From assembly GCA_965218065.1 (NCBI GenBank), contig OZ244589.1, forward strand, positions 2,495,127-2,559,126: a stretch of DNA of 64,000 nucleotides, written 5' to 3'. Both the position numbers and the translations under genes were made by a program. Below the pieces are notes generated by a model. It did not search any database, was not told the DNA's origin, and was given only the letters and a program-made list of their open reading frames with translations. Source of the DNA: Flavobacteriaceae bacterium (GTDB lineage: Bacteria; Bacteroidota; Bacteroidia; Flavobacteriales; Flavobacteriaceae). Below, one piece after another: positions 1-34,426 of the stretch (the stretch's first letter is position 1; every line of letters starts with the position of its first letter).

Positions 1-3000
1 ATCTTAAAAATAGATGCTTCTATGTCACTTTTATCTTGTTTGTTGTTTTGTGCATTAAAATGTGTTCCATTTGTATGGATCACTTTTTTCTGCGTATTCT
101 CTTGTAATGCTTTAAAATCTATCTTACCATTAGGTAATTTTGGGATTTCTACTACGTCATATATAAAAGAAGGAATCATATACTTCGGTAATTCCTGGCT
201 CAACGCTCTTTTCAAGTCATCAACATTTATACTGACATCAGAAACGATTAGTGCATTTAATCGTTCGTCATGTATATCCATTGTGTTCTTATAGGCAACA
301 GCTTGTCTTACTCCAGGATATTTCTGAATTGCCGATTCTATCTCTCCCAATTCCACACGATACCCTCTTATTTTTATTTGAGTATCATTTCTCCCATGAA
401 ATTCAAAATTCCCATCCATTAGCATTCTTCCTACGTCTCCTGTTTTATAAATAATCTTCGAGTCAATATCCTTAGAACCTGGAACGAAAGCATGATCTGT
501 TTGTTCTTTATTCTTCCAATAACCAGTTGCCAGAATATCTCCTCCTATGTACAAATGTCCGGGCACTCCTCTAGGTACTAATTGCAGATCATCATCCAGT
601 ACATACATCGCACTGTTATAAATAGGCCTTCCTATAGGTACATTACCATATTCTGAATGCTCTTCGCATCTGTGATGTGCCATAAAAATACTAGCCTCCG
701 TCGGTCCATATAAGTTATGTAGAGATCCTTGAAATTGTCGTGCTACTTCGTTTTTAAGATCGATAGGCAACTTTTCTCCTCCGCAAAACACTTTTTCTAA
801 AGAACGCACCGATGAAAACATATTCGCTTCTTGAAATAAGCGTAGACCAGAAGGTACGAATTGCGTAATAGTAATCTTGTACTCATTGATAATGGACGCA
901 ATCTGTTCAGGAGATTCCATATCGGATCTTTTCTTAAGTACAACCGTTCCTCCAGAAATTAAAGGCAAGAACAACTCCCACACCGAAATATCAAAACTAA
1001 TGGATGTTTTTGCCAGTATTTTAGATGTTGAATCAACATTAAAAGCATTTCGCATCCATAACAGGTAGTTTGCTACACCTTTATTGGGGACCATTACGCC
1101 CTTTGGTTTACCAGTAGATCCAGACGTGTAGATCAAATACAACAGATCTTCTTCTGCTACCCTAACATCATTCATTTTTTGACCTGTTGTCTTTTGAATT
1201 TCATCAACACAAACAATTTGTATCGTATCTTTTAAAAAGTCTATAGATTGATCAGAAGTAGTTAGTACACAACTCGTTTCTGCATGCTCAATAATATACT
1301 TGGTTCGATCGAACGGATATGTCGGATCTAAAGGTATATAAGGAATTCCTAACGCTGACATTGCTAACATAGCAACAATCATTTCTGGCGTATGATCCAT
1401 ATAGATCGCTGTTGGATTCTCCTTATTAAGTGCTACTTTCTGCAAGTATGCTATTGTACTGCCTACTTTTTCGATAAGCTGCTTGTAGGTCAAAACCGTA
1501 TCATAATATTGCACTGCAACCGCTTCTTGATGCTCATGACACGCCTTTTGAAACAGATCGAACAAAGTGAGTTTTGAATTAAAATTTATACTAGGTCCTG
1601 CGCCATTTCGTAAGATCATTTCCTTCTCTGACTTCCATATTTTAGGCGTACTTCCTATTTCGGCAGTAAAATCGTGAAGAACATCGTACAATGTCTGTTT
1701 TACTATTCGAACCATTTGTAATGCAAATGCTTCATTGGTTATACCTTTATCATAGGTTAGCTTCAGTGTAATTTCATCAGTATTATCAAAGCATTCGAAT
1801 TGTAGATCACATTTTGCGTTTCCGTTCGAAACCTCTTTGGTCTGGATGGACAAATCCTCATTATGATACGAGTATCTATCTGTTTGATGGTACGCAAACA
1901 ATAATCTAAAGGCGTTTAACGTAAAATTCACTCCTTCTTTCCGCAAGATCTTCATCAATTCATCTAAAGGGATTTGCTGATGATCCAATATTCGAATAGT
2001 ATCTGATTTAATTTCATTGACCAGCTTATCAAAGGGTTTATTTTTATCGCATTTAGTTCTTACAAAAAGCGTGTTAGAAAGATATCCTATGCTTTTTTGT
2101 TCGGCCTTGGTCAACCTATTTGCAAATGGCATAGCAATTAAATATTCCTCTTGATTACCTATTCGAAATAGTGTTGAGGCAAAAGCACTTAAGAATAACA
2201 TATTCAGTGTAACGTCTTTCTTTGCTGCTAAATGCCGCAATTTTTCTCGTAATCTGCTATCTATGTTAGCAAGCACTGTTCCTGATTCAAAAGAGTGGTA
2301 TTCTTTTGCTTTAAATATCTTCGGTAAACCGTGTATCGCTCTAACATCTTTTAAATATCGTTTCCAGAAACTTATACTCTCTTTATAACCTTCCGATTTT
2401 TCATACATCGCTCTGACCTGAGTAATTTCAGAAAACGATAATGACGGTAGTTGATCTTTATTTGATAAACCATTACTGTAAAAAGTAGCAAGTTGTTGAA
2501 TAAAATTGGGTAAGGATTCTCCATCAAAAATTAGATGATTCACCACAAATCCTAAGACGTATGTATCTTCGTCTACCTTGTATAATTTAGCCTTAAACAA
2601 ATCCCCATCAAAAGTAAATGGAACGGCTGCCATAGCAGAAATACTATCATCAACGAAGCGCTTTCTTTCTGAAAGGAGTATATCTTCTACTGTTTCTACA
2701 ACCAATCTAAAATCCTTCGTTTCTCGATTAAAATAAGGATGCCCATCTTCCACTTTAAGTCGTGCAGAAAGCAATTCGTTATTGTCAATAATATGCTGAA
2801 TTGTCTTTTCAAGTCGCTCTATATGTATTGCTCCTTTAATTGAGATCGAATACGCAATACTATAGGAGGTGTTTTGTGGATTTGCTTGTAGGAAAAAGAA
2901 CAATGCTTTTTGCGGAACGCTCAATTCCATTCTATCTGAACTTGTTTTTTCTAACTTATCAATTGGAGGTTTTCGTAACAATTCAAACGTAAAAGAACTT

Positions 3001-4730
3001 AATAATGCTTGGGGTGTTGGGTCTTTAAAAAAACGTTGGAAACTGATCTTGTGCCCAAATTCTTCCTCTACTTCAATCAACAAAGAGATCATCTTTAGAG
3101 AGTTTCCTCCCAGATCGAAAAAGTCATCATGCAACCCTACACTGTCAACTTGTAACACTTTTTCGAACAGCGCAATTATCTTTTGTTCCTTTTCCGTTGA
3201 TGGATGTATGTACTCCGTTTCCAATTCAGGCCTTGAAAAATTCATCTCAGGTAATTGATTTCTGTCGATCTTTCCATTTGCCAACGTCGGGAATTCATCA
3301 ACGAACACCCATTTTCCAGGAATTGCAACAGACGGTAAAAACTGTAGAAGATATGTCCTTAGTTCACCAATTGTTGGTTTTTGTTGTTCTTCACTTCGTA
3401 CATAGGCGATTACATTCGTTTCAGAAAATAACACCACACTTTTAGCAACGAATGCGTGATTTGTCAATACATTTTCTATCTCTCCCAACTCAATTCTTTG
3501 ACCATTGATCTTTACTTGCTGGTCTTTTCTGCCTAAGAATCGATATTCATTTTCTCCAATTCTAGTAACCACATCTCCCGTATTATATACCTCTACGACA
3601 CCATCATTTTCTGAGGCATAACTAAAAAAGGTTTCTTCCGTTAACTGTTTATTGTTTAAGTAACCATTCGAAATCCCAGGTCCTGATGCGTATAGGAATC
3701 CTTGCTCGCCTACAACAGCTTCATTACCATCTTCTTTTAGCACATAAAACTGCGTATCTGGTAGTGGTCCTCCCATAGAAATATCATCTGATGATTCAAC
3801 CTTCTTAAAACTTAAATTAGCTACCGCTTCCGTAGGTCCATATAGATTCCAAATGGGTAGTTGAGGAAATAATTCTTGCGTCTTTCGAATGAGGTTTTGG
3901 GAAATAGCTTCTCCGGAAAGAAACAATGCTTTTGGCGGATGCAAAACCTGACCATTTTTTCGTTTTGCAAACCATTCTAATGCCAAAGCCCAAACTGATG
4001 GCACACAATAGAGTCCAAATTCCGGTTGCTTGGTATACCACTGAAACAATTTTTCAGGATCGTTCAACAGGTCAGAAACAATATGCAAAGTTTCTCCAGC
4101 TGAAAGACAAGAGAAAATTTGAGATACAGCCGCTGCAAAATTGATATCGGAGGTTAATGGTAATTTATTCTGTATGGTTGTTTTAAAAAATTCTTGTGTC
4201 CAAGAAGTATAATAGGATAAGTTCTTATGATGTATTTTCACACCTTTAGGAACACCAGTAGATCCAGAGGTAAAAAGAACATAGGCCAGATCTTCTTCAT
4301 CTGCACTTACATCCGTTGTTGAAATCTGCATTGAAAAATCGAATGTATCATATACCAAACATTTATTTATCAACGAACCAACAATACTTGCATGCGCCGA
4401 ATCGGAAATCATCAACTTACTTCCGGTATTTTTTACAATATGTGCTATTCTTTCTTTAGGAAAATGAACAGATAGCGGTACATAAGCAGCTCCGGCCTTT
4501 AGTATTCCAAGTATGCTTACAATGAACTCAATACCTGGATCAAGTAATACAGGAACCATATCTCCCTTTTTGAGATTTTGTTCTCTAAGAGTACTAGCTA
4601 CAACATCTATACGTATTCGTAAATCTTGATAGGTGATTTTGGCATTACCGCATACAATTGCAGTTCGCAAAGGATGCAAATTGGCGTTTTCTAAAACGCT
4701 AGATAGTATTGGGGGATACCGTTTCTTCAA
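1..4730 (-). CDS. Non-ribosomal peptide synthetase, 3'-truncated by the window edge (A-PCP-C-A-...)
   Basis: Not in the ORF track because no stop codon lies inside the window. My reverse-strand translation is open from TTG 4730-4728 to position 1. Motifs read: A3 cores AYVLFTSGSTGVPKG (~4286-4242) and YLIYTSGSTGKPKG (~1139-1098); A8 GRKDQQVKINGQRIELGEIE; A10 PTLANGKIDR and LPNGKID; carrier motif FFDLGGNSL (Ser codon 3101-3099); condensation C1 LSVPQKALFF; active site VNHLIFDG (His codon 2537-2535). Confidence 0.9.
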   Translation of the reverse strand, partial: MKKRYPPILSSVLENANLHPLRTAIVCGNAKITYQDLRIRIDVVASTLREQNLKKGDMVPVLLDPGIEFIVSILGILKAGAAYVPLSVHFPKERIAHIVKNTGSKLMISDSAHASIVGSLINKCLVYDTFDFSMQISTTDVSADEEDLAYVLFTSGSTGVPKGVKIHHKNLSYYTSWTQEFFKTTIQNKLPLTSDINFAAAVSQIFSCLSAGETLHIVSDLLNDPEKLFQWYTKQPEFGLYCVPSVWALALEWFAKRKNGQVLHPPKALFLSGEAISQNLIRKTQELFPQLPIWNLYGPTEAVANLSFKKVESSDDISMGGPLPDTQFYVLKEDGNEAVVGEQGFLYASGPGISNGYLNNKQLTEETFFSYASENDGVVEVYNTGDVVTRIGENEYRFLGRKDQQVKINGQRIELGEIENVLTNHAFVAKSVVLFSETNVIAYVRSEEQQKPTIGELRTYLLQFLPSVAIPGKWVFVDEFPTLANGKIDRNQLPEMNFSRPELETEYIHPSTEKEQKIIALFEKVLQVDSVGLHDDFFDLGGNSLKMISLLIEVEEEFGHKISFQRFFKDPTPQALLSSFTFELLRKPPIDKLEKTSSDRMELSVPQKALFFFLQANPQNTSYSIAYSISIKGAIHIERLEKTIQHIIDNNELLSARLKVEDGHPYFNRETKDFRLVVETVEDILLSERKRFVDDSISAMAAVPFTFDGDLFKAKLYKVDEDTYVLGFVVNHLIFDGESLPNFIQQLATFYSNGLSNKDQLPSLSFSEITQVRAMYEKSEGYKESISFWKRYLKDVRAIHGLPKIFKAKEYHSFESGTVLANIDSRLREKLRHLAAKKDVTLNMLFLSAFASTLFRIGNQEEYLIAMPFANRLTKAEQKSIGYLSNTLFVRTKCDKNKPFDKLVNEIKSDTIRILDHQQIPLDELMKILRKEGVNFTLNAFRLLFAYHQTDRYSYHNEDLSIQTKEVSNGNAKCDLQFECFDNTDEITLKLTYDKGITNEAFALQMVRIVKQTLYDVLHDFTAEIGSTPKIWKSEKEMILRNGAGPSINFNSKLTLFDLFQKACHEHQEAVAVQYYDTVLTYKQLIEKVGSTIAYLQKVALNKENPTAIYMDHTPEMIVAMLAMSALGIPYIPLDPTYPFDRTKYIIEHAETSCVLTTSDQSIDFLKDTIQIVCVDEIQKTTGQKMNDVRVAEEDLLYLIYTSGSTGKPKGVMVPNKGVANYLLWMRNAFNVDSTSKILAKTSISFDISVWELFLPLISGGTVVLKKRSDMESPEQIASIINEYKITITQFVPSGLRLFQEANMFSSVRSLEKVFCGGEKLPIDLKNEVARQFQGSLHNLYGPTEASIFMAHHRCEEHSEYGNVPIGRPIYNSAMYVLDDDLQLVPRGVPGHLYIGGDILATGYWKNKEQTDHAFVPGSKDIDSKIIYKTGDVGRMLMDGNFEFHGRNDTQIKIRGYRVELGEIESAIQKYPGVRQAVAYKNTMDIHDERLNALIVSDVSINVDDLKRALSQELPKYMIPSFIYDVVEIPKLPNGKIDFKALQENTQKKVIHTNGTHFNAQNNKQDKSDIEASIFK

Positions 4731-4767
4731 GGCGGTGTTTTTTTTATATTATTTCTTCTTGCAATTA

Positions 4768-6258
4768 TTAAAACAAATTGAGCAATGTAAATTCGTTCAA
4801 TTCTTTCTCATTATTAGGTAATTCGCCTAACTTGAATTTTAGGCTTACATAATTTTTCCATATATCATACTTCAATGCATTCAACGACTTCATCGCCGTA
4901 AAATAATTATCAAAAGAGAGTGTGATATCAATTTGGGTGGAACTACCAAGTTTGAATTTTTCTTTTTCATCCAAATAGTTTTGCCTGGTTAATGCCGCGA
5001 TGTTCTTTGTCTGTTCAAATAGCTCTATTTTCTGCTCTAAAAGTGTAATGTTCAATTTTGCACTTACCACACTTTCAAAAACATATTGATCTAAGAAGGT
5101 TTTTGATCGATCTAACTCCGTTAGTTGCTCTAAATATGCACCTCGTTGTTTTTGGTTACTAATAGGTAAATTATGCGTTAACGAAACTAACACGCTATAT
5201 CCTGGATACGTACTCCTTAATGTATTGCTAAAGTTGTACCCACCATTTTGGATCATTCCAAACCTCGATACTTTTACGTCCAGATCGAGTTGATTCCTCT
5301 TTTGGTTTTTTGCATTTTTTAATAACAGTTCATTCTCATCAACTCTCAGAGCAATACTTTTGTACTGCGGTGTATTTTTAACCAGAGTTTCCAGATTGAA
5401 TTTTCTTTCTGAAATATATTTTATTACTTTTTTCTTGTCAGGATCAGGTATTGCATCCATCAAAAGAGGTACAGAATCTATCACTGCATCTACCTTGTTA
5501 CCCAACAACATTCTCGTGCTATAATACGTTCCTAAAGCATCAAGATTTGCAACTGTGAGCTGTTGTGTTTTTTGCTCTACAAAAGCATCAGCTCGATTCT
5601 TTTCTACTTGAGGAATTAAATCATTTTTCGCCAGGGAATAAATGTACTCATGGTATTTCTTTGCCTCTGCTAGTGTGTTTTGCTCGATCTTAAATTTTTG
5701 AGTGTTTTCTTGCAGGGTCAAATAAGTAAGTAACATATCGTTAAAATAGGTCAGTACCTGATTTGAAAACTGTTCTTTTATGGCTTGCTCATTTATCTTT
5801 GAGGTTTCAATAAATGTATTCGCAGAACTACTCTTCCCCAGATCTCTTAACAAAGGGATTTTCGCTCCAATCCATGCACCAGAGCTATTTAAAATAAAGC
5901 TCTCTTGTATAAGATCCGTTCTTTCTAAACGTGCTCCTGAGTACAGATCAATTCCGAACTTTGTGGGTACCACAAAATTGGTTTGAAAGTACTGGGTTCC
6001 ATTATTGGTAATCGTTGGATCTACACCAGATCCATATACAATTTCAGAATCTAAATAGGGATTTAAAAAACCGTTGGCCCTTAACAAAGTATACGTTGCC
6101 TTGTTTACATTTAAGTTTTCTAATTTGATAGCGTAGTTATTCTTAAAACCTTCGCGAAGTAATTCTTGAAAAGAGATTGCTCTCTTCTGGGCTTTTGACT
6201 GCGTAGTCAAAAACAATGAGATTAATACGATACATATCTTTACTCCTACTTTCATCAT
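4768..6258 (-). CDS. TolC-family outer-membrane efflux protein
   Basis: 496 aa with signal peptide MMKVGVKICIVLISLFLTTQSKAQ. Size and helical/beta pattern fit OEP/TolC proteins. Its ATG overlaps the stop of the upstream ABC gene by 1 nt (TAATG). Confidence 0.75.
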   Translation of the reverse strand: MMKVGVKICIVLISLFLTTQSKAQKRAISFQELLREGFKNNYAIKLENLNVNKATYTLLRANGFLNPYLDSEIVYGSGVDPTITNNGTQYFQTNFVVPTKFGIDLYSGARLERTDLIQESFILNSSGAWIGAKIPLLRDLGKSSSANTFIETSKINEQAIKEQFSNQVLTYFNDMLLTYLTLQENTQKFKIEQNTLAEAKKYHEYIYSLAKNDLIPQVEKNRADAFVEQKTQQLTVANLDALGTYYSTRMLLGNKVDAVIDSVPLLMDAIPDPDKKKVIKYISERKFNLETLVKNTPQYKSIALRVDENELLLKNAKNQKRNQLDLDVKVSRFGMIQNGGYNFSNTLRSTYPGYSVLVSLTHNLPISNQKQRGAYLEQLTELDRSKTFLDQYVFESVVSAKLNITLLEQKIELFEQTKNIAALTRQNYLDEKEKFKLGSSTQIDITLSFDNYFTAMKSLNALKYDIWKNYVSLKFKLGELPNNEKELNEFTLLNLF

Positions 6259-8507
6259 TAACTCATTTGATTCTTAACTAAGTTATAGAAAAATCCTTGC
6301 TTTTTTATCAGTGCATCATAGCTTCCTTTTTCCATGATCTCTCCTTTTTCCAATACTACAATCATATCAGCATCTTTTATGGTACTTAGTCTGTGCGCAA
6401 TGACCACTTTTGTAGCATTCAGTTCATTCAAGTTGTCTGTTACCGTTTTCTGCGTATCATTATCCAGAGCTGATGTTGCTTCATCAAACAAGATAAGCTT
6501 AGGCTTTTTGATCATCGCTCGTGCAATTACAATACGTTGTTGCTGGCCTCCAGAAAGGGTTCCTCCACCTGCCGGAAGGTACGTATTCATTTTATCCTCT
6601 AGATCTTCTATTTCCTGATCACATCCTGCCATTCTTGCTGCCTCCCATGCTTCCTCTTCTGTATAATTAGAGGTCCCTATGATATTATACAGCACAGTAC
6701 CTTCCATGATCTTTCCATTCTGCAACACCACTCCCGTTTGATCACGAATGGTTCTGATATCTAATTCTTTCATATCCATCCCGTTAAATAGAATCGTACC
6801 TTTCTCATATTCTTCAAAACCGAGCAATACTCGAAATAGGGTAGATTTACCTGAGCCTGAGCCTCCAACTATAGCAACAAATTGGCCTTCTTCTATAGTC
6901 AAACTAAGGTCTTTGAGAATTAGCGTATCGGTATCTTTATACTTAAAATGAAGGTTCGATATTTCAATTTTACCCGTTAGTTTTCCAACATCTTTTTTAT
7001 TGTCATAATCTTCCGTTTCGGCCTCTAACAAAGGTCTCAACAATTCTAATGTTGGTTTAATGCTCATTACAGGCACAGTTACCATAAATGCACTGATCAA
7101 TGCTCCTTGAAAACTTAAATAGGCCGAGTTAAAAGCAATAAAATCACCTATACTAAAATTAGAACCGGGTAATGTTAGCAGGTCATAAATACGAATGTAG
7201 ATCAATAGCGTCGCCAAAATGGGGAAGCCATAGGTAAATACAGATGCAACAATGATCAATTTTTGTTTATCTGCATAATGTTTTTTCTGCTGAGAGAATT
7301 TATCTGCCCAAATATTGAATACCTTATCTTCGGAAGCTGTCATTCTCACTTTTTTTATTCCTCCCATCATCATCATCATAAATCCAGAAATAATAGCTTG
7401 CAAACGCATCGTTCCAGCAACATGTTTATAGGCCAACTTACTAATGGTCAATGTAAATCCGGCTACTACTACCCCAAGCAGTAAAGCCAGAATCGTAAGT
7501 TTAACATCATAATAGAACATTAACGCCAAATAGAAAATGGAGAAAATAGCTGCCACTAAAGCGCTCATCACATTTGCCGAGAGAATGGTTCGTATCTTTT
7601 CTATTCCCAAACTTCTTTCTGCCAAATTTCCGGCATCATATTTATTAAAAAACGGCACTTTTAACGATAATATTCTATCCCAAACAGCCGATTGTAATTT
7701 ATAGCTTGACTTCCCTTCGAAACGAAGCACTGCAATAGATTTCGCCAGGTTAAGAACTCCAAGTATTAAGACTAATGTCAGGATCACATACCCTATTTCG
7801 AATAAGCTGTTTTGTTCTCCGCCAGGAATAATCACATTAAAAATATACCCGGACATGATTGGGATAAACAATGACAACAATGCTCCGACAATACCTAAAA
7901 CAAAAAAGAAAACAACATCCTTTTTGGTAAAAGCAAGTGTAAACTTCAACAGTCCTAATTGCGTAATTTTTCCCTTGGGTAAAGGAGAGAAAAAGGAATG
8001 TACCATAGGCTCAATACTATTCGCTATAGAAGTATTTACAACAGTATCCTTTCCTGTTTTTATATTTTTAAGAATGTACTTTTTGTTTTTTCTTACTAAT
8101 GCTACCGGGGAATTGTCTTCCTTTAAGAAGGCAAGTAATGGTCCATGGTCATACTTCCACCACTCTTTTTCCAATCGAATTTTTCTGGATCTAATATTCG
8201 AAGCTCTTAAGATCTTTTTTAACGGACTCCATACTTCTGATGCGTTTTCAAATCCTGCCACGAACTCAATACGCTCTATATCTCCAATAAGTTTACACGT
8301 TTTCAATAATAGAGAATCGTACGATTCTTTCGGATCATAACTGTATTTCGATTTCTTATTGTCTTTTGGGAATAGAACTTCATTCAGCTTAGTATAGCCT
8401 CCATCGTGAGAAAGCTTCCTAAAGAAATAGGAAGTTTTCACCTGTCGAATCGCTTTTTCATAGAAAAGCTTCTTGGAGTCTTTATGTTCTGACGAATTTT
8501 CTCCCAT
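6258..8507 (-). CDS. ABC exporter permease/ATPase, non-peptidase partner of a dual-ABC (NHLP/NHLM-type) export system
   Basis: 749 aa. TM exporter core plus NBD with Walker A GGSGSGKST, signature LSGGQQQR, Walker B ILFDEATSALD and H-loop IAHRLST. A ~190-aa N-terminal extension has no protease catalytic residues. Confidence 0.85.
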   Translation of the reverse strand: MGENSSEHKDSKKLFYEKAIRQVKTSYFFRKLSHDGGYTKLNEVLFPKDNKKSKYSYDPKESYDSLLLKTCKLIGDIERIEFVAGFENASEVWSPLKKILRASNIRSRKIRLEKEWWKYDHGPLLAFLKEDNSPVALVRKNKKYILKNIKTGKDTVVNTSIANSIEPMVHSFFSPLPKGKITQLGLLKFTLAFTKKDVVFFFVLGIVGALLSLFIPIMSGYIFNVIIPGGEQNSLFEIGYVILTLVLILGVLNLAKSIAVLRFEGKSSYKLQSAVWDRILSLKVPFFNKYDAGNLAERSLGIEKIRTILSANVMSALVAAIFSIFYLALMFYYDVKLTILALLLGVVVAGFTLTISKLAYKHVAGTMRLQAIISGFMMMMMGGIKKVRMTASEDKVFNIWADKFSQQKKHYADKQKLIIVASVFTYGFPILATLLIYIRIYDLLTLPGSNFSIGDFIAFNSAYLSFQGALISAFMVTVPVMSIKPTLELLRPLLEAETEDYDNKKDVGKLTGKIEISNLHFKYKDTDTLILKDLSLTIEEGQFVAIVGGSGSGKSTLFRVLLGFEEYEKGTILFNGMDMKELDIRTIRDQTGVVLQNGKIMEGTVLYNIIGTSNYTEEEAWEAARMAGCDQEIEDLEDKMNTYLPAGGGTLSGGQQQRIVIARAMIKKPKLILFDEATSALDNDTQKTVTDNLNELNATKVVIAHRLSTIKDADMIVVLEKGEIMEKGSYDALIKKQGFFYNLVKNQMS

Positions 8508-8513
8508 ATATAC

Positions 8514-10667
8514 TTATGAATTCTGTATCAGGTTATAATACAATCCGCTTGTATCTTTCATTAATTCTTCGTGATTTCCTTGCTGTATCACTTTTCCTTT
8601 TTCTAAGACGATGATCTCATCAAAGTCCTTAATGGTACTTAATCTGTGCGCTATGGTTATCGTAGTACAATTCCTTTTGCGGAAATTGTTCATGACCAAT
8701 TTCTCTGTTTCTGTATCTAATGCTGAAGTAGCTTCATCTAAAAACAAAATGCTCGGATTTGTTATGAGTGCTCTAGCAATTTCTAAACGCTGTCTTTGTC
8801 CACCACTAAAGTTTCTTCCGGCTGGAGCCACCTTTGCCTGATACCCTCCATCTCTTTCCGAAACAACTTCATGTATTTCTGCATCTTTTGCAGAAGCAAT
8901 AACCTCTGCATTTGGAATTGCTCTATTCCACATGGTTATATTATCAGAAATGGTTCCTGTAAAAAAGAAAGTCTCCTGATCTACCATGGACAAAGAATTT
9001 CTTAAGACATCCTTATTGATAGAATTAAGAGGCTTATCATCATAGGTAATTTCTCCTGATAGCGGTGGATATAATCCTGACATTACCTTTAATAGGGTAG
9101 ATTTTCCAGATCCGGAACCACCTACGATGGCAATTCTTTTCCCTGGATGTGCGCTCAAAGAAAAATTTTGGATAATTGGTTCGCTAAACTTGTTATATCC
9201 AAAAGAGATATTTTTTACTTCAAAAGCTCCTGTGAGCTTTGCATTTAGTGGAGTTACTGTGCCAATCGCTTCTCTTGCTTCATTATTACAGAAAGGATCA
9301 ATAGGTTCATCTAGAGAGTCTACCAGATTATTGATATTACCTCTATTTAATTGCATGTTACCGGTAAAATCAACCAGGTTTTTAACCGGGTCTGAGAAGT
9401 TTGCAATAAAACTTTGCAGTGCAATAAACACTCCAATAGTTAGTTCTCCCCGAATGATCAATAACCCTCCTAACAGTAAAATTACCACATTATTTAGTTG
9501 AGAAATAAAGTCGGGTAAAACCGTAAGGATCCTCGAAGTCACCCCTAGTTTCTGATTGTTATTAATAGCTGCTATTAGGTGACTTGACCATAGGGCAAAG
9601 AAATCATTCTCTGCTCCGGAAGCCTTAAGGGTTTCTATCTGTTCTATTCCTGTTGTAGCAATACTAAATGTTGCTTGTTCTTTTTGAAACAAAGCCTGAT
9701 TTAATGCGGTTCTTTTTGCTGAGAAATATCGTAAGGCAAAAATATTTATGAGCATGATGGTTATCCCTACTAAAGATAAGATCCAGTTGTATTTTAACAT
9801 AACGAATCCGTAAAAGAACACCGTTAAAAAACTCAGTATCATAGCGGCAAAATCTCTTGTCAACAAAGTAGCGATAGCATCATTAAGCCCAATTCTCTTT
9901 ACGGTTTCTCCTGTAGGATGATTTTGAAAATATTTATATGGAACTTTGAATATATGCATCACAAATTTGGCTGATTCTACCAAACTTGATTTTAGTTCTA
10001 CACGCAGCAATATCCATTGTTGCAAGTATACCAATAGACATCCAAATATCAGAAAAGCCACTAATGCGGTGAGCATTGGATGAAACCATTGCGACTGGGA
10101 CAACAGAATAATATCGTCAAAGAACAATTTGTTAAGGGAAGGAATGACAATAGCAGGAATCAACAAAATAACGCCGGCAATTAAAACATAGAGCATTCCT
10201 TTAAAATTGGGAGCAACACGTTTCTTTAGTTCATTATAGAAAGAGGAGCTCTCTTGTATTTTTTCAAAATCTTTACCGGGAGAAACTATAAGAGCCCATC
10301 CTCCATACTTTTCATCAAGTTCCTTTTTGGGGATTTTCTCTTTTCCTTTTTCAGGATCATGCACATAGTAATGGTCTTTTCCTGTTTTTACAAGAACGAT
10401 ATACTTTCCTGAATTGGTCTTCAGAATAACCGGAGATGCTTTAGGCAATTGCTCCAACGATTTGGCAGATTGCTCAGCGTTACATCCAAAACGTTCAGCT
10501 GTCTTATGAAGATTTTCGGGAGCTATTTCATCATTACCTACATTACACGCATTTTTAACGGTATTTAGTTTTGGAAAGGAACCATAATACCCCAAAAGCA
10601 TTGCCAAGCAAATTGCTCCGGACTCGCCTTGATTAGATTGTAATAAAACGGGGATTTTCCTCTTCAT
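8514..10667 (-). CDS. C39-peptidase-like-domain ABC exporter (PCAT-type architecture)
   Basis: 717 aa. N-terminal C39-like domain (LLQSNQGESGAICLAMLLGYYG ... GKYIVLVKTGKDHYYVHDP), TM exporter core, and NBD with GGSGSGKST, FSGGQRQR, LFLDEATSALD and IAHRLST. Confidence 0.85.
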   Translation of the reverse strand: MKRKIPVLLQSNQGESGAICLAMLLGYYGSFPKLNTVKNACNVGNDEIAPENLHKTAERFGCNAEQSAKSLEQLPKASPVILKTNSGKYIVLVKTGKDHYYVHDPEKGKEKIPKKELDEKYGGWALIVSPGKDFEKIQESSSFYNELKKRVAPNFKGMLYVLIAGVILLIPAIVIPSLNKLFFDDIILLSQSQWFHPMLTALVAFLIFGCLLVYLQQWILLRVELKSSLVESAKFVMHIFKVPYKYFQNHPTGETVKRIGLNDAIATLLTRDFAAMILSFLTVFFYGFVMLKYNWILSLVGITIMLINIFALRYFSAKRTALNQALFQKEQATFSIATTGIEQIETLKASGAENDFFALWSSHLIAAINNNQKLGVTSRILTVLPDFISQLNNVVILLLGGLLIIRGELTIGVFIALQSFIANFSDPVKNLVDFTGNMQLNRGNINNLVDSLDEPIDPFCNNEAREAIGTVTPLNAKLTGAFEVKNISFGYNKFSEPIIQNFSLSAHPGKRIAIVGGSGSGKSTLLKVMSGLYPPLSGEITYDDKPLNSINKDVLRNSLSMVDQETFFFTGTISDNITMWNRAIPNAEVIASAKDAEIHEVVSERDGGYQAKVAPAGRNFSGGQRQRLEIARALITNPSILFLDEATSALDTETEKLVMNNFRKRNCTTITIAHRLSTIKDFDEIIVLEKGKVIQQGNHEELMKDTSGLYYNLIQNS

Positions 10668-10693
10668 GATACCTAAAATTAAACGTGCTTCTT

Positions 10694-11935
10694 TTATTTA
10701 AAGTAATCTTTAAATATGGGCAGTAGATAGTCAATAGGTGCTTTCTCTTTAACATTAACAAAAGCACGGGTCATCTGGCCTGGGTATATTTTAAACGGAG
10801 GCCCTTTCTTATTGGACCAATCGAAACCACTGATCGTATTCGGGTCTGAATTTAATTGTACAACCACTTTATAAACAGCTCCTTTAGACTCTATCATACT
10901 TACCAGATCACCATTTTGCAGATCATTGACCAAGCTTTTAGAAGAAGAAACAAATGGACTAACATCCTTCACCGTTCCTTTTAACCATCCGTATAAATTA
11001 TAGTCTACATTAAAAGGCTGTATATCTACTTCCATATCTTTTGTAATAAGCTCGTTCGAGCTAAACGGTACATATAAGTTTAATATGTAACTCTTACTTG
11101 TTTTTTCATCTTCATTAATAACGGCCAAAATCAGGTCCGGAGAAATAATATCTCCTTCTTTTGCATTTATCTGTCGCACAACACCGGTTGTCTTAGCCTT
11201 AACTTCGGTTCGTAATTTATATTCCTTATTTAGGTCTTCAAGTTCCTTTTCTAGAATAGCTACCTGATCTACAATATCTTTCTCTGTAATATTTTTTCCC
11301 AAATTCCATTCCTGAGAATTCAGTGTAATTAAATTGAGCTGTTCATTCAACCCAATCCTTTCCGTTTTTACATCGGTAAGATTGCTCTGAGTAGAAAAAT
11401 ATTGAGAGTATGTGATCAAACCTTTATCGTACAACTCTTTTTCCTGAGAAACCTTCTTTTCTAAAAAATCAATGGTTTTTTGATTTTCCGAAAGTTTTTC
11501 CCGAAGTCTGGATTCACCAAGATTATCTACCTGATTTTTAAGAGATGCGTTCTTTGTATTTCCAGAGAGAATTAACGTTCTTTTTGCCTTCAATTGTTTG
11601 ACCGATGCTTCGAGTTCTCTAACCTTACTTTCCATTTCCGGTTGTCTAACTACAAAAATGACATCTCCTTTTCGCACAGCGTCATTAATACTGGCATTTA
11701 CTTGAGTTAATTGTCCACCGTACAGCGCATTAACCCTGTGTAATCCACCTTCGGTGCTTATCTCACCAATTCCTTCAATTTTTTGTGGAATAGCACCAAA
11801 AATACCCCAGCCTATCGTAATAACTGCGGCCACAACGAACGCGATTAAAACGTAGGAATACATAGGGCGCGTAATGACAAGCGCCTTTAATAGCAAATTA
11901 TCTCCACTATTAGAATTGCCCTGAGATTCTTGCAT
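10694..11935 (-). CDS. HlyD-family membrane-fusion / secretion adaptor protein
   Basis: 413 aa. One N-terminal TM helix (YVLIAFVVAAVITIGWGIFGAI), a long coiled-coil centre and barrel-sandwich ends. It lies 26 nt upstream of the ABC gene. Confidence 0.85.
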   Translation of the reverse strand: MQESQGNSNSGDNLLLKALVITRPMYSYVLIAFVVAAVITIGWGIFGAIPQKIEGIGEISTEGGLHRVNALYGGQLTQVNASINDAVRKGDVIFVVRQPEMESKVRELEASVKQLKAKRTLILSGNTKNASLKNQVDNLGESRLREKLSENQKTIDFLEKKVSQEKELYDKGLITYSQYFSTQSNLTDVKTERIGLNEQLNLITLNSQEWNLGKNITEKDIVDQVAILEKELEDLNKEYKLRTEVKAKTTGVVRQINAKEGDIISPDLILAVINEDEKTSKSYILNLYVPFSSNELITKDMEVDIQPFNVDYNLYGWLKGTVKDVSPFVSSSKSLVNDLQNGDLVSMIESKGAVYKVVVQLNSDPNTISGFDWSNKKGPPFKIYPGQMTRAFVNVKEKAPIDYLLPIFKDYFK

Positions 11936-11963
11936 AAATTTTAGAAATTAATAAGGTAATGCC

Positions 11964-12257
11964 TTAGTGCATTCCCTTTGCTTTCAATGCATCTCGCTCT
12001 TCCTGAGATACCGGGCATGTGATTTTCCCGTTTGCGTCTCTATATTGATCAATATCGTGCTCGTCAATAAATTTTTGAATTTGTCCTTTAGAAAGACCCA
12101 TAGACGCAAATCTTTCCATCATATTTCCCATTCCCGGGATACTGCTCATATCTGGAGCACCATTACCTCCTGAAGAAGGCATGCTTTTTGGACTTGGTGC
12201 TGAGGGTGCAGAAGGTGCACTCGGAGGACTAGGGATGTTAAATTTTGATTTTTTCAT
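11964..12257 (-). CDS. Small Pro/Ser/Ala-rich peptide with internal Gly-Gly; candidate exported substrate or precursor
   Basis: 97 aa with no Sec signal. The N-terminus reads MKKSKFNIPSPPSAPSAPSAPSPKSMPSSGG, followed by a charged helical C-terminal part with one Cys. It heads the operon, 28 nt upstream of the HlyD gene. Confidence 0.55.
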   Translation of the reverse strand: MKKSKFNIPSPPSAPSAPSAPSPKSMPSSGGNGAPDMSSIPGMGNMMERFASMGLSKGQIQKFIDEHDIDQYRDANGKITCPVSQEERDALKAKGMH

Positions 12258-12315
12258 GAGGTGTTAGATTAATTAATATTTTGGTTTAGGATGTTTAAAT
12301 ATAACCAAAAAAAAC

Positions 12316-12323
12316 CAAAAATA
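12316..12323 (-). promoter_or_regulatory. Candidate Bacteroidota -7 box (TATTTTTG) for the export/NRPS operon
   Basis: On the minus strand this reads TATTTTTG, matching TAnnTTTG, about 58 nt upstream of ATG 12257. Confidence 0.3.
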
Positions 12324-12610
12324 AGCGCGAACCACTAAATTTAACTACGTAGTAACACTTAGATACGTCTTACCAACACACCCTTAACGCTTATGTATTA
12401 TTCGGTAAAATAATGTAAAATTCATGGTTGCTCGTAACTTATTTCATGACCAGAACAGCGATTCTTATTTTTTAAAGGATACAAGAAACGACATTAGGGA
12501 ACGAGCAGTACCGAAGTGTTAAAGTTTTCTAAATCCACTCACTGATATTTTTATTATTAAACAAATAGTACTATACTTGTAGTATACTACTTTTAAAAAC
12601 CTTAATTTCA

Positions 12611-12976
12611 ATGAATTACAAATCAAATCTTTTAGAGAAATGGGAAGAAGTTTATAAAAAAGGACTCTTAACATTTTGGGTTTTACTTTCACTAAAAGAT
12701 AAATCCTTATACGCTCACGAAATACAAGAATTCATTAAAACAATTACCAATCATACTATTTCTTGTGAAGATCAGAGTCTATATAGATCTCTCCGAAAGT
12801 ATTATGATCTTGAGATTGTTGATTATGAGTTAAGAGAAGGAAACAAAGGACCGAAGAGAAAGTATTATTTTCTTACAGACATTGGCAAAGAGCTACTTGT
12901 CGATTTCACTAACAGGAATATCAGTTTGTTTTTTCAGAACGAAGTGGTAGACATAATTTATAATAAACCATCATGA
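12611..12976 (+). CDS. PadR-family transcriptional regulator
   Basis: 121 aa with a winged-helix PadR pattern (GLLTFWVLLSLKDKSLYAHEIQEFI ... SLYRSLRKY ... KGPKRKYYFLTDIGKELL). ATGA overlap with the next ORF. Confidence 0.8.
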   Translation: MNYKSNLLEKWEEVYKKGLLTFWVLLSLKDKSLYAHEIQEFIKTITNHTISCEDQSLYRSLRKYYDLEIVDYELREGNKGPKRKYYFLTDIGKELLVDFTNRNISLFFQNEVVDIIYNKPS

Positions 12977-13465: not shown

Positions 13466-14470
13466 TCACTTAGTTCGTTCGTTCAGAATGGAAGTTTTAT
13501 AAATAATCCTCCCTTTCCAATCGACAATTTGCACGAACATTTCTTTCTCCGTTAGCGAAACAATCATAAACCCCTGAATGGATTTTGCAAACTTTGTATA
13601 ATTTGCATAACTCGTTGGTCTAACCTGAGATCCAGCTCCAGATACAAAATGATGAGTTTTAACGTTTTGAGGTTTTTGATATTGTAGATCATGCTCATGC
13701 CCTGCGAAGTAAGCATTCACTCTATATTTCTCGAACAAATATTCTAAATGTTTTTTCACGTTATTGGGTCGATCTTTTCTTTTTCCTGACGTATACAATG
13801 GATGATGTCCGATAACTATATTCCATGTGGCCGTAGATTCCTTAAGGTTCTTCTCTATCCATTTCTTTTGAGCCAGAGAATCTTGACTTTGAATATTCTT
13901 CTGATACTTTTCATCTAAATAGTAAAAATCTTCAAAAGGGTTCGTATCTAAGAAAAGAAACCTAATCGACGCGTCTCCCTTTCCGTATTTTTTATCCAAT
14001 TTGAAATACCTTTCAGGCATGTTCCATCTTTGGCTGACTTTCGTATATTCAACTTGCGCCTGTGGATTCCCTCTATATCCATGGTTTCCAAGAACTACAT
14101 ACCAAGGACAAAATAAATTATAGCCAGAGTAAACATCTTCAAAACTACTTTTTATATACGGGTCTGACTTACTAGCTATACCATTTGGATAAAAATTATC
14201 TCCAGTTGAAATAATAAATTCTGGTTCTATTAAAAATGCAGCTTGATGCATAATACTAGCGACGTTCTTCTGAAGAAAATACCCATTTCTACCCCAATCG
14301 CCAATTACGTAAAAATGAAATGCATTTTCTAAAATTTCTAATTTCTCTAAGTTTCTATTATTACTTTTATTATGGTATTCAGTAAAGTGCTCTCTTGAAC
14401 TTTGGCATGCAACAAACAAGACAAATGAGACATATAATACTGAGATGTTAACAGGCAACCTTCTCATCAA
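13466..14470 (-). CDS. Metallophosphoesterase, purple/tartrate-resistant acid-phosphatase-like lipoprotein
   Basis: 334 aa with lipoprotein signal FVLFVAC. Motifs GDWG, GDNFY, GNHG, GHHP and GHEHDLQY. Confidence 0.8.
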   Translation of the reverse strand: MMRRLPVNISVLYVSFVLFVACQSSREHFTEYHNKSNNRNLEKLEILENAFHFYVIGDWGRNGYFLQKNVASIMHQAAFLIEPEFIISTGDNFYPNGIASKSDPYIKSSFEDVYSGYNLFCPWYVVLGNHGYRGNPQAQVEYTKVSQRWNMPERYFKLDKKYGKGDASIRFLFLDTNPFEDFYYLDEKYQKNIQSQDSLAQKKWIEKNLKESTATWNIVIGHHPLYTSGKRKDRPNNVKKHLEYLFEKYRVNAYFAGHEHDLQYQKPQNVKTHHFVSGAGSQVRPTSYANYTKFAKSIQGFMIVSLTEKEMFVQIVDWKGRIIYKTSILNERTK

Positions 14471-14481
14471 TACGCGTGTTG

Positions 14482-15537
14482 TTAATTGGTTTTGTTTTTT
14501 TCGATAGCTCTTAAAATTGCTTTTTTCACATTGCCCTTACCGCCCGTATATTTCAACGCTCGTTTGTAATACTTGTCGGCTTTTTTGTACAGCTTTTTAT
14601 AGGAAAAGTACAAACCAGCGGCATAATTTGATTCCCATGTTTTTGGGTTCTTCTTTAGATTAGAATCGTTCAGTTCTTCGATGATCTTTAATGCGTCTTT
14701 TTTTCTATACCTATAAATGTAACTATAGGCTTCATACGCAGTTGCGGACGCTATCAACTCTTTCTTTACCTCGTTGAACTTCTCTGTCTGTTCAGTTTTA
14801 AGTAGCAACTGTGCCTTAACTAAATAATTATTAAATGTTTTTTCATTGTTTAATGCTCTGTCAATCCAATCGAGTCCTTGAGTATAGTTCATGTTGTTAT
14901 TTAGGCAGTACGAGGCAGCATTATACCAGCCGTCCGGAGTAAAAGCTGCATCTGATCTTAGTTGTTGTTTTATATGATTCAAAGTAGTTAGTACATCTAC
15001 CTCAATCTTAAATGGAATTTTATATTCACCCCATTTTAAGGACAAAACCACATGGTTTTTTTCTCGGATCTCAAAATCGTATGTTAACCACTCTCTATGA
15101 GGAATTTTTTCTTTTTTCACAGTCACCCTTAAAACATCTTCGTTTTTATCGTAGAAAAAGCTTCCCCATGAAGTAGTGTTTTTCGAAAAAATAATAGTCA
15201 CATCATCCTCTGCAGCAATTACATGAAACCCGTAGATTCCCGCAGCCATTTTCTTTCCTTCAATTCTGACGCTATCGGAAAAAGAAATAGTGGTATTTTC
15301 ATTAGCTCCTGCTCTCCAGGGAAAGGGCTTCCCTCCTTTAGGCATAATTCTAGCATTCCCCCAAACTTTTCTTCCTCTGGTTGCCGGACTATGATAATTA
15401 ACAACAATATCTGTAAAACCAACCCGTTGCATTGTACTAGATTTCTGACTTTTTTTAGGTATTTCAAGTGCTCTAGGTATTTGTGAGAAGCCGTTGAAAA
15501 CAAACATAGAACAGATTAAAATGATTACTTTTTTCAT
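14482..15537 (-). CDS. Secreted DUF2911-like protein with TPR-like C-terminal half
   Basis: Signal peptide MKKVIILICSMFVFNGFSQ starts at ATG 15537; the track start at 15564 is 9 codons further upstream. FTDIVVNYHSPATRGRKVWG ... PWRAGANENT resembles DUF2911. Confidence 0.6.
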   Translation of the reverse strand: MKKVIILICSMFVFNGFSQIPRALEIPKKSQKSSTMQRVGFTDIVVNYHSPATRGRKVWGNARIMPKGGKPFPWRAGANENTTISFSDSVRIEGKKMAAGIYGFHVIAAEDDVTIIFSKNTTSWGSFFYDKNEDVLRVTVKKEKIPHREWLTYDFEIREKNHVVLSLKWGEYKIPFKIEVDVLTTLNHIKQQLRSDAAFTPDGWYNAASYCLNNNMNYTQGLDWIDRALNNEKTFNNYLVKAQLLLKTEQTEKFNEVKKELIASATAYEAYSYIYRYRKKDALKIIEELNDSNLKKNPKTWESNYAAGLYFSYKKLYKKADKYYKRALKYTGGKGNVKKAILRAIEKNKTN

Positions 15538-15664
15538 ATTGAATATCTTTAAATTAAAACACATGTTGATTATTTAAAACTGTCTAACTTGAGACTTATC
15601 TTACATTCTGCATAAGAGTATACCGATTTTGAAGATCCATAACTTAAATCATAGATTATATGAA

Positions 15665-16984
15665 CTATGCGCCCTGAACAACTTTAAAAACATTCCCAAA
15701 TGGATCTGTCAAATACAAAATCGGTATACCTGTTTCAGGGTTTGTTGTTATTTTCATTTGGGACCCAACTTTATCTTTTAATTTTTCAGATAAGCTTTTG
15801 ATGTTTGGTACGCTAAAAACCATCATTAATTGAGTTTCCTCTATATTATATGTAGCTGGGATCACGCTTTTTTTATGTAGCATAAATGCAAAATTCCCAT
15901 CAGCGTACCCAAGAGGTAGCGCCGGTAAAAACTTTGTCGAACGAACCGTAAAGCCCAAAATATCACAATAGAATGCTTTCGCTTTCTCCAAATTATTCAC
16001 AGACAATCCGACATTATAGATCATTGGTTCTTTGAATCTGGGCACGGGAAATTTTGACTGCTCCATGAAATTAATTTTATTTCCAAACGGATCTTGATAT
16101 GTAGCAGCATATCCTACCCCATTTTCAACTTTCCCGGCAACAAGGGTAATACCTTTTGCTTTGTAATCTGCCATTAAACTATCTAAGTCATTCGTATGAA
16201 AAGACAGCGACGTCCTTGTTTCTTTAGGAAATTGATCTTTCCTTAATTTCGATACTTTATAAAGTAGTAGTTTAATTCCCTTATTATCTAATTCGGCGTA
16301 CTGATCTGTTTTAGATTTTACCTTAAACCCTATTTTTTTTGAATAAAAACGTACCGCCTTATCCATATGTAAAACGTTAATTTGAATTGCATAAACCTTT
16401 AGTCCATTTTTCTTCTTGTTCATTAGAAATTCCTTTTCTCGTTGTTGCTTTAAGGTTCTTACCCCGTGTATTACTCTCTCTTCATCTGTAATCTTTGTTG
16501 TATCTATCCTATATCTTTCCCAAGGGCTTTGAGCATTCTTTCTTATAAACTGAGTGCCAAAAATTTGTGGTTTATTTTTTCTCATTAAATCTCTATCAAT
16601 AGCTGCTGCTAAGAGCCATTTATCAGTCATTGAATCCAACTCAACAGCTTTTCTCATCATTTTTACAGCCATAGTAGATGAAACGGTATCATTTCCATGT
16701 TGAAATATCATTGCTGCACGATAATGATCTAAAGAGGTCTTTATTTTATTTGTATTTAAAAGCTGCCTCACTCTGGCTCGTCTATCGGAGTCATTCTTAC
16801 TTACAGTACTCCAATCAATAGGATCCTTAGACCGATCAGCTTGATCTTCATTATACATTTTCAGCATTTCCATGTTGTCATGACTTTCTACAGATGTCGT
16901 TTTATTGGTCTTCTTTCCGATGCAAGAATTAAAAACGCATATCATTATGAGAGGTACGGCAATAATATTTTTAATACGAATCAT
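15665..16984 (-). CDS. Lipoprotein with tandem VOC/glyoxalase-like domains
   Basis: 439 aa with lipobox VFNSC. Two VOC-like modules are visible (LHMDKAVRFYSKKIGFKV and VNNLEKAKAFYCDILGFTV). Confidence 0.6.
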   Translation of the reverse strand: MIRIKNIIAVPLIMICVFNSCIGKKTNKTTSVESHDNMEMLKMYNEDQADRSKDPIDWSTVSKNDSDRRARVRQLLNTNKIKTSLDHYRAAMIFQHGNDTVSSTMAVKMMRKAVELDSMTDKWLLAAAIDRDLMRKNKPQIFGTQFIRKNAQSPWERYRIDTTKITDEERVIHGVRTLKQQREKEFLMNKKKNGLKVYAIQINVLHMDKAVRFYSKKIGFKVKSKTDQYAELDNKGIKLLLYKVSKLRKDQFPKETRTSLSFHTNDLDSLMADYKAKGITLVAGKVENGVGYAATYQDPFGNKINFMEQSKFPVPRFKEPMIYNVGLSVNNLEKAKAFYCDILGFTVRSTKFLPALPLGYADGNFAFMLHKKSVIPATYNIEETQLMMVFSVPNIKSLSEKLKDKVGSQMKITTNPETGIPILYLTDPFGNVFKVVQGA

Positions 16985-17158
16985 ACATTTTATTTAATAG
17001 TAGTTCTTAACTGAGTGGACGATTTTATAATTGCTACTTCAAGAGTTGCATGATATTTATTGGTATCAGAGTTGGTACATATCTTTATTCGTTTTGCTAA
17101 CATTGTTGCTTGGCATTTAGTTTCGGTATAGTTCAGTGCATTATTAATTAGCCAATGA

Positions 17159-18010: not shown

Positions 18011-18022
18011 AAATGACTATTG

Positions 18023-18433: not shown

Positions 18434-18457
18434 GATATATATAATTAAATTAGTACA

Positions 18458-19147: not shown

Positions 19148-19234
19148 TTTTAATGTTTTTTATTGTTTATATGGTTTTCAAAATTTTTCTATATCCGAAG
19201 CAATCTTTGATGTTATTCTATGAACGGAGCCGCA

Positions 19235-20212: not shown

Positions 20213-20215
20213 CGA

Positions 20216-22585: not shown

Positions 22586-22830
22586 AAATAGGAAATTATC
22601 CGGTTGAAAAAGTTAATCTTTTACTAACTAACCGGTTTAGAAAAGAGTTCATCTGTTCTAGGGACTATATAAAGTAAATGGCATAAAAAAAAGCAACCAT
22701 TTCTGATTGCTCTTGTTGTAATGGGAATCTTTAAATTATCGAACCTAAATGAAGTGATTAATGATTTTATGAAGGTTATTGAATCTTGTGAAATTTGTAA
22801 CTATTATTTCTGAATCCTGTAATGTAAAAG

Positions 22831-31979: not shown

Positions 31980-32020
31980 TTAGTTTTTCTCAGATTAAAA
32001 ATTGGGGGTCAAGTGATACG

Positions 32021-34396: not shown

Positions 34397-34426
34397 TTCG
34401 CGTTTTATTTTTAGTTTAATAATTGT

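Follow-up and report, generated by a model that had tools for sequence, protein, structure and literature searches.

The window analysed here, a 64,000-nucleotide (nt) stretch of the contig OZ244589.1 of a Flavobacteriaceae bacterium, contains at its left end six minus-strand genes running from position 12257 to the window edge. According to the list of open reading frames (ORFs) and their translations, these encode, in order, a small protein of 97 amino acids (aa), a HlyD-type adaptor, two ABC half-transporters (ABC1 and ABC2), an outer-membrane factor and a non-ribosomal peptide synthetase (NRPS), designated NRPS1. The description of the locus as a biosynthetic cluster with its own exporter, and of the peptidase-like domain of this exporter as having lost its protease chemistry, is held with high confidence; the role of the small protein is graded far below it. 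The features of the locus are as follows.

11964..12257, minus strand: conserved small protein of an unannotated family, 97 aa (conservation, dN/dS), with the Cys81 codon at 12015-12017
10694..11935, minus strand: HlyD-type periplasmic adaptor (membrane-fusion protein) of the NHLM type, 413 aa (TIGR03794; Pfam HlyD_3)
8514..10667, minus strand: ABC half-transporter 1 (ABC1), 717 aa, with a C39-like domain, a six-helix membrane domain and a canonical nucleotide-binding domain
10263..10667, minus strand: C39-like domain, ABC1 residues 1-135 (aligned with ComA and with the protease domain of LahT, 6mpz)
6258..8507, minus strand: ABC half-transporter 2 (ABC2), 749 aa, without a peptidase domain (TIGR03797)
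4768..6258, minus strand: outer-membrane factor, divergent TolC/OEP, 496 aa (Pfam OEP; N-terminal signal-peptide-like hydrophobic segment)
1..4730, minus strand: NRPS1, cut by the window edge, TTG start at 4730, 1576 codons, A1-PCP-C-A2 and the start of PCP2
12258..12372, minus strand: candidate promoter and 5'-leader region, kept among relatives and holding the -7 box TATTTTTG

The junctions between the six genes, recomputed from the coordinates, are 28, 26, 6, -1 and 37 nt long, and both the ORFs and these lengths match the initial annotation exactly; the -1 nt junction of ABC2 and the outer-membrane factor has the sequence TAATGATG. No terminator-like hairpins were found between the six genes on the minus strand. 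Boxes TAnnTTTG of the Bacteroidota -7 type occur six times on the operon strand in positions 1-12700, against a chance expectation of 6.6, and just one of them, TATTTTTG at 12323-12316, lies in the 200 nt before the start of one of the six genes; it heads the operon, 66 nt before the first ATG. The ~115 nt before this ATG are near-identical in the window, in Asprobacillus argus S356, the closest named genome, and in a metagenome relative (the two counterparts are at ~3868-3982 in L008 and ~9886-10000 in L001), and beyond them the upstream sequences of the window, L008 and L001 are unrelated. A promoter function is predicted for this region. The six genes probably form one transcript, as had been proposed for them, judging from the tight spacing, the absence of terminator-like sites and the single promoter-like region. 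A perfect palindrome, CTACGTAG, is located in the leader region ~25-35 nt upstream of the TAnnTTTG box and is a possible operator. A scan for sigma-70 promoters, which returned fewer sites than shuffled sequence, was discarded, this model not being applicable to Bacteroidota promoters.

Independent genomes and metagenomes contain the whole cassette in this order, its junctions likewise short, so that a mere chance run of ORFs can be dismissed. The host of the window is a marine member of the Flavobacteriaceae; it has a GC content of ~35% and encodes type IX secretion sorting domains near the operon. The neighbours of the cassette are a divergent PadR gene (12611-12976) in the window; genes of a PTL_trimer (Fib_succ-like) protein and of a type IX secretion (Por_Secre_tail) protein in L001, where era and der lie a few kb away; a two-component system in L004; and a thioredoxin-like gene in L008. 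Being found in such differing chromosomal contexts, the cassette behaves as a self-contained module.

The exporter is related to the NHLM (NHLP/Nif11) export trio, represented by the families TIGR03794, TIGR03796 and TIGR03797 (Haft et al. 2010, PMC2887384). In the NCBIfam comparison, the HlyD protein passes the cutoff of TIGR03794 (206.7 bits, cutoff 156.2) and ABC2 that of TIGR03797 (756.9 bits, cutoff 709.4); for ABC1, TIGR03796 is the best family by a wide margin, yet the score of 779.1 bits is below the cutoff of 853.3. Pfam domains Peptidase_C39, ABC_membrane and ABC_tran were found in ABC1, and Walker A, signature, Walker B and H-loop are all present in its translation; the nucleotide-binding sites of both transporters look canonical. 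The 193-aa N-terminal extension of ABC2 has no Pfam match. ABC1 and ABC2 are 28% identical over the membrane and nucleotide-binding domains and, by the paired-gene architecture of the NHLM trio, a heterodimer of the two is probable.

The 496-aa protein matches Pfam OEP with 28.3 bits (gathering score 22). When its orthologues are combined into a profile, the OEP encoded at a canonical NHLM locus is matched along the full length (hhalign probability 98.85%, E 4e-17, 454 columns), and because of this full-length homology the label 'TolC-like' is justified; at the sequence level, nothing significant was found for it in the PDB, TolC being matched at E 0.26. The initial annotation had recognized an NHLM trio with its own TolC-family partner, and this is upheld by the scores of HlyD and ABC2, the best family of ABC1 and the OEP profile match; hidden Markov models did not place the two ABC proteins in generic drug-efflux families. 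The presence of an own outer-membrane factor is not special for such a trio, since a canonical NRPS-free system also has one. In L012 (Paraburkholderia humisilvae), a DDE transposase (3494-4488) is encoded where Bacteroidota carry the outer-membrane factor gene, and an Omp85/POTRA protein (21530-23791) is encoded after the phosphopantetheinyl transferase (PPTase); L016 is also devoid of the outer-membrane factor gene. The proteobacterial versions may borrow chromosomal TolC.

The N-terminal domain of ABC1 matches PF03412 (Peptidase_C39) with 79.3 bits over model positions 2-132 of 133, by which the C39 fold is judged to be kept. The catalytic residues are Cys27, His101, Asp117 and Gln21 in LahT, with Gln11, His96 and Asp112 in ComA (PMC6363468, PMC8277102). 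In the alignment to these two proteins, Ser16 of ABC1 (10620-10622, TCC) is found at the position of the catalytic Cys and Lys88 (10404-10406) at that of the catalytic His, while Asp104 and the oxyanion Gln10 are retained.

The same columns were counted over the matches of a database search, comprising 68 close homologues (identity of at least 43%, clustered at 90% identity) and 41 canonical NHLM-type homologues (identity of at most 41%). The former Cys column of the close homologues contains Ser in 63, Thr in one and Ala in one, three sequences being N-terminally truncated; the Cys is thus lost in 65 of the 65 with the N-terminus present. The former His is represented by Lys (48), Asn (5), Arg (5), Gly (4), Thr (2) and by Ser, Glu, Val and His (one each), that is, His is kept in only one of 68, and the oxyanion Gln is replaced by Glu in about half. 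Both Cys and His are present in all canonical homologues (41/41 each). The degenerate clade is hosted by marine Flavobacteriaceae, Saprospiraceae-like metagenome-assembled genomes (MAGs), Paraburkholderia and other proteobacterial relatives. Since the fold is kept while Cys and His are gone, the domain is, by this comparison, a non-catalytic C39-like domain under selection. The designation of ABC1 as a peptidase-type transporter is consequently not supported, both catalytic residues being absent. Non-catalytic C39-like domains of the HlyB type tether uncleaved cargo (PMC8277102, PMC6363468).

Downstream of the exporter genes, NRPS1 begins with a TTG codon preceded by a stop codon in the sequence, and is interrupted by the window edge. 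Its full-length orthologue in A. argus has 1669 aa and the domain order A-T-C-A-T. The end of this gene is overlapped by a gene of a type I polyketide synthase (PKS) of 1838 aa, KS-AT-KR-DH-ACP, followed by genes of a stand-alone enoyl reductase, NRPS2 (C-A-T-TE, 1328 aa), a PPTase, a VC0807-family membrane protein and an O-methyltransferase. Read against these loci, the six genes of the window are the 5' half of a predicted operon-like hybrid NRPS-PKS-NRPS cluster of ~23 kb and 12 genes. A PKS 92% identical to that of A. argus (P0006) is recorded on a contig of the same length (3,083,864 bp) as the 97-aa protein (P0271) and a 100%-identical ABC1 (P0125); from the orthologous loci and these recorded proteins, we infer the region to the left of position 1 and that the window's own genome carries the PKS.

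The full cluster was found in three relatives, namely, A. argus, a Bacteroidota MAG, the PKS of which is 45% identical to that of A. argus, and P. humisilvae; in four further lineages from marine and other metagenomes, it could be followed up to the NRPS or PKS. NRPS-PKS genes adjoin all seven sampled members of the degenerate clade with readable downstream genes, and no NRPS or PKS was found beside the transporter genes of the sampled canonical member, which has intact Cys and His and its own OEP. All features of a hybrid cluster were found: A, carrier, C, KS, AT, KR, DH, ER and TE domains, encoded by collinear genes, and the PPTase, with A-PCP-C-A in the window and the rest in the orthologous loci. 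The link of the NRPS to the exporter, noticed from the window alone, is thus genuine and conserved, the evaluable syntenic loci keeping the NRPS and most of them the peptide. The 'multimodular NRPS' of the initial annotation was correct as to A-PCP-C-A and incomplete as to the assembly line, which is an NRPS-PKS-NRPS hybrid.

The specificity codes of the A domains are nearly invariant across phyla. The code of A1 is AAS[Y/H]FSLANK (AASYFSLANK in the window). As this code is without Asp235, which binds the alpha-amino group, the starter of NRPS1 is probably not an alpha-amino acid. The code of A2 is DIWQFGLIFK in the window, A. argus, L015 and L016, and the same with Val at position 2 in L012; in L009 and L022 it is DILQ[I/L]GL[I/V]YK, while the A1 and A3 codes stay fixed, which suggests a second residue that may vary within an otherwise conserved product. 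The code of A3 is DLTKIGHIGK. In the Stachelhaus collection of 1999, the Asp code is reportedly one residue away from that of A3, and the Gly and Gln codes are said to resemble that of A2. The product would be a small molecule of the acyl-(gamma-amino acid)-Asp type, possibly O-methylated.

The 97-aa protein at the head of the operon was compared with two orthologues, which gave a ratio of non-synonymous to synonymous substitutions (dN/dS) of 0.05-0.18, and of 0.007-0.15 for the C-terminal half. By these ratios, the ORF is under purifying selection; together with the related clusters and the kept position upstream of HlyD described below, they show it to be a real gene. Its orthologues are labelled 'hypothetical protein' at NCBI. 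An exhaustive profile search gave 26 clusters (50% identity), of which 25, with proteins of 51-137 aa, are credible. The one spurious cluster, P0257, a 2873-aa repeat protein matching the small-protein profile, was rejected as a homologue, the match being compositional and due to DxDGDG repeats. The metagenome scan with a seven-sequence alignment returned only the L001 contig and two spurious matches, L018 (a FabI-like C-terminus) and L019 (a non-coding frame), which were likewise rejected.

The N-terminus of the small protein is Pro-rich (MKxxKxxIPxxPxxPxxP), followed by a low-complexity Gly/Met/Ser region, and AlphaFold2 predicts its ~40 N-terminal residues to be disordered. Conservation is located in the C-terminal ~35 residues, [F/D]-[P/D]-[I/L]-D-x-Y-R-D-x-x-G-K-[I/V]-x-C-P-V-S-x-E-E-R, where Y72, G77 and P82 are invariant and D74, C81, E86 and R88 at least 90% conserved; one family member, P0249, has Pro at the Cys81 position. 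A Sec signal was not found in the protein, and NCBIfam (E<=0.01) and Pfam, including the NHLP, Nif11 and other leader models, gave no match, in agreement with the initial annotation of an operon-head peptide of 97 aa that has no Sec signal and is no obvious leader of the Nif11 or NHLP type. Its naming as a 'Gly-Gly peptide' is not supported, given the missing NHLP/Nif11 match and two further observations: the G30-G31 pair is not kept in register (P0003 has GS, and other orthologues have unrelated residues), and the residues before it are Pro/Ser/Ala-rich and unable to form an amphipathic leader helix. No other small ORF resembling a Gly-Gly leader was found near the operon. The profile matched PDB sequences only at E>=0.33, and no match to the low-confidence model of the protein was found in the PDB by Foldseek. 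Resemblance to EF-hands was discarded, since calmodulin EF-hand loops were matched at E~1, which is not significant.

A homologue of the small protein is encoded directly upstream of HlyD in seven of nine evaluable lineages (the window, L008, L001, L004, L013, L022 and L016), a count made for loci with the upstream side covered, which leaves out L009 and L012. This position next to HlyD is kept despite unrelated flanks.

The mechanism proposed for the locus has two parts. In the first, NRPS1 would load a starter that is not an alpha-amino acid, and a small residue resembling Gly or Gln; the PKS module, with its KR and DH domains, and the separate enoyl reductase would add one fully reduced C2 unit; NRPS2 would add an Asp-like residue, its TE domain releasing the chain; and the O-methyltransferase would tailor the product. 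In the second, the first five genes of the operon would provide a dedicated NHLM-derived tripartite exporter spanning the envelope, composed of HlyD, the ABC1/ABC2 heterodimer and the TolC-family channel. The C39-like domain would still bind a peptide ligand without cutting it, and the 97-aa protein would be this ligand, an uncleaved cargo or adaptor recognized via its conserved regions, which passes through the exporter or docks on it together with the metabolite of the cluster or in its service. As a whole, this reading of an NHLM-derived, non-cleaving, type-I-like exporter serving the cluster, with the small protein as uncleaved cargo or adaptor, is favoured with modest confidence.

Several points weigh against it. 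The export of the small protein and its binding by the C39-like domain are themselves predictions. Known transporters with C39-like domains carry large RTX proteins with C-terminal signals and not proteins of 10 kDa (PMC8277102). Since Ser hardly varies at the former Cys position and Lys is frequent at the former His position, residual unconventional hydrolysis is possible. The AlphaFold2 model of the small protein is of low confidence (predicted local distance difference test of 56 with five sequences and 62 with 27), and the substrates predicted for the A domains, derived from the resemblance of codes, are tentative. L015 contains the exporter, NRPS and PKS with the small-protein homologue missing, and L020 contains the exporter genes without a small ORF before HlyD, on a contig that ends before any NRPS is visible. 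The order of genes in L015 (6508-12136) is HlyD, a B12-binding radical SAM protein of 560 aa, an unrelated Gly-rich ORF of 98 aa and ABC1 (60% identical), which hints that small peptides at this position are modified by enzymes.

The strongest alternative, though considered unlikely, is that the exporter carries the metabolite only and that the 97-aa protein, remaining cytoplasmic, acts as a regulator, an assembly factor or a gate for the transporter or the megasynthase. L015 and L020, which keep the exporter genes (and, in L015, the NRPS and PKS) without the small-protein homologue, are consistent with it, as are the canonical nucleotide-binding domains of both ABC proteins. NRPS clusters commonly contain an ABC exporter of this fold along with adaptor and outer-membrane factor, PvdRT-OpmQ and SyrD being examples. 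This alternative is opposed by the clade-wide selection that keeps the C39-like domain and suggests a peptide ligand; by the position of the small gene, which heads the operon and adjoins the adaptor gene in seven of nine lineages; and by the largely disordered nature of the 97-aa protein, which has no DNA-binding or enzyme signature.

Two further readings would give the small protein a part in carrying the product. In the first, considered improbable, it is made by the ribosome as a scaffold or escort, takes up the NRPS-PKS product (by a covalent bond via the near-invariant Cys81 or non-covalently) and is secreted whole; the peptidase may then have been inactivated so as not to cut it. The second, slightly less probable still, is a covalent hybrid, in which the small protein, as a ribosomal scaffold or carrier, is joined to the NRPS-PKS product, for example via Cys81, and the conjugate is exported uncleaved. 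A near-invariant Cys-Pro within the most conserved motif, the strict co-location of the small gene with megasynthase and exporter, the non-cleaving C39-like domain, expected if the whole protein is the product, and the different small ORF of L015 beside a radical-SAM enzyme, a hint of peptide modification, are all consistent with such a conjugate. However, no ligase, transferase or starter-condensation domain is evident and NRPS2 ends in an ordinary TE; P0249 carries Pro instead of the Cys; and a fully reducing PKS module leaves no obvious electrophile for a thiol.

It is very unlikely that ABC1 is an unconventional protease in which a Ser16/Lys88 dyad cuts at a site other than Gly-Gly. The presence of Ser at the former Cys in 63 of the 65 sequences with a residue there, of Lys as the commonest residue at the former His (48/68) and of the retained Asp104 would fit such a dyad, but Asn, Arg, Gly, Thr, Ser, Glu or Val stands at the former His in 19 homologues, a change that a catalytic dyad would not tolerate, and the oxyanion Gln has become Glu in about half. 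Least probable is the model of the initial annotation, in which a double-glycine leader is cut after G30-G31 by the C39 domain to give a peptide made by the ribosome and modified after translation (RiPP) or bacteriocin, the NRPS product sharing the pump: the Gly-Gly pair and the missing Sec signal of the window protein and the NHLM lineage of the transporter speak for it, but it is largely refuted, as judged from sequence, by the loss of the catalytic Cys and His, the out-of-register Gly-Gly of the orthologues, the non-helical Pro/Ser/Ala-rich residues before it, the unmatched NHLP, Nif11 and leader models, the absence of a RiPP tailoring enzyme and a conservation at the C-terminus that is the opposite of a conserved leader with a variable core.

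The remainder of the window contains a number of features beyond the operon. Upstream of the PadR gene, a same-strand run of hydrolase and detoxification-type genes (13466-21115, minus strand) encodes a metallophosphoesterase, a DUF2911 protein, a double glyoxalase/bleomycin-resistance fold, a DUF5694 protein, an alpha/beta hydrolase and an NHL/virginiamycin-B-lyase-like beta-propeller; in relatives, the cassette is not accompanied by any of these genes. The region 25104-34396 (minus strand) encodes two large surface or secreted proteins unrelated to the operon, one of 2291 aa with FG-GAP repeats and, after it, one of 791 aa carrying a C-terminal sorting domain for type IX secretion. The stretch 34000-44709, probably an integrated island, has a low GC content (24-30% against about 36% elsewhere). 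It contains a gene of a GIY-YIG/NUMOD1 protein (37386-38093), a weak HEPN/Csm6-like ORF (38141-39445), unassigned ORFs (40798-43168), a receiver domain (43172-43540) and, abutting era (45099-45980), a tyrosine integrase (43531-44709). The exporter cassette of L001 is located ~5.5 kb from era/der, so that an additional ~27 kb separates the two in the window. The gene at 53223-54458 (minus strand) encodes a protein of 411 aa in which an HD domain is combined with the Pycsar effector transmembrane domain PycTM (131.7 bits); it is a possible anti-phage effector of the Pycsar type. The run at 54593-59102 (plus strand) is represented by genes of oxidative-damage repair: msrB, msrA, a SelO protein adenylyltransferase, a second msrA-like gene and an alpha/beta-hydrolase-OsmC fusion.

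The novelty of the locus lies in a widespread, uncharacterized cluster family that repurposes a peptide-processing exporter, together with an unannotated family of small proteins. No description of this cluster family, or of a link between an NHLM trio and NRPS or PKS genes, was found in the literature, the coverage of which was incomplete, so that an earlier description is possible. A peptidase-containing ABC transporter is usually taken as a sign of leader cutting and ribosomal peptide export, and a non-catalytic C39-like domain as a sign of giant RTX cargo. If the small protein is the ligand or cargo of the exporter, the C39 fold would have a third use, and the system would be a tractable one for studying how type-I-like exporters handle non-ribosomal products. 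If instead the reading of the small protein as a scaffold or escort is true, the locus would represent an undescribed class of ribosomal/non-ribosomal hybrid secretion across Bacteroidota and Proteobacteria. Genome-mining tools may tag such loci as 'RiPP-like/bacteriocin exporter' or as 'NRPS-PKS', leaving the two parts unlinked.

Among known systems, PvdRT-OpmQ, the pump of pyoverdine, likewise spans the envelope and is encoded with, and dedicated to, a non-ribosomal assembly line. Pumps of this kind are of the MacB type and, unlike the window exporter, are associated with neither a C39-derived domain nor a small ribosomal protein. The occurrence of pumps within NRPS clusters is well known; as far as we are aware, these are of the MacB type or plain ABC exporters. 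ZmaM of zwittermicin, with ClbP-like activation, is similar to ABC1 in that an ABC exporter encoded within an NRPS-PKS cluster carries a fused domain of peptidase fold. The peptidase of the ZmaM type is an active S12 enzyme that removes an N-acyl-D-Asn prodrug motif, whereas the window domain is C39-derived and its catalytic residues are lost.

With the NHLM trio, the exporter shares the three-gene architecture and the lineage, and a cognate OEP is present in canonical systems as well. It differs in that ABC1 scores under the curated cutoff and is without catalytic Cys and His, in that neither an NHLP/Nif11 precursor nor a conserved Gly-Gly site is found at the operon, and in that its neighbours are NRPS/PKS genes and not TOMM or lanthipeptide enzymes. 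The N-terminal C39 fold is also shared with the PCAT/AMS transporters, from which ABC1 differs by the loss of the catalytic Cys and His. No RTX or other large secreted protein was found in the operon or its conserved flanks. Type I secretion of the HlyB/HlyD/TolC type is similar in its tripartite machine and in a C39 fold without the catalytic Cys, by which uncleaved export is expected (PMC8277102). In the HlyB type, the His is retained, stacked on a Trp, and the cargo is a large RTX protein with a C-terminal signal (PMC8277102), whereas the window domain has also lost its His. In contrast to the HlyB type, the transporter of the window is a two-gene pair, and its candidate ligand is a protein of ~10 kDa encoded within an NRPS-PKS cluster.

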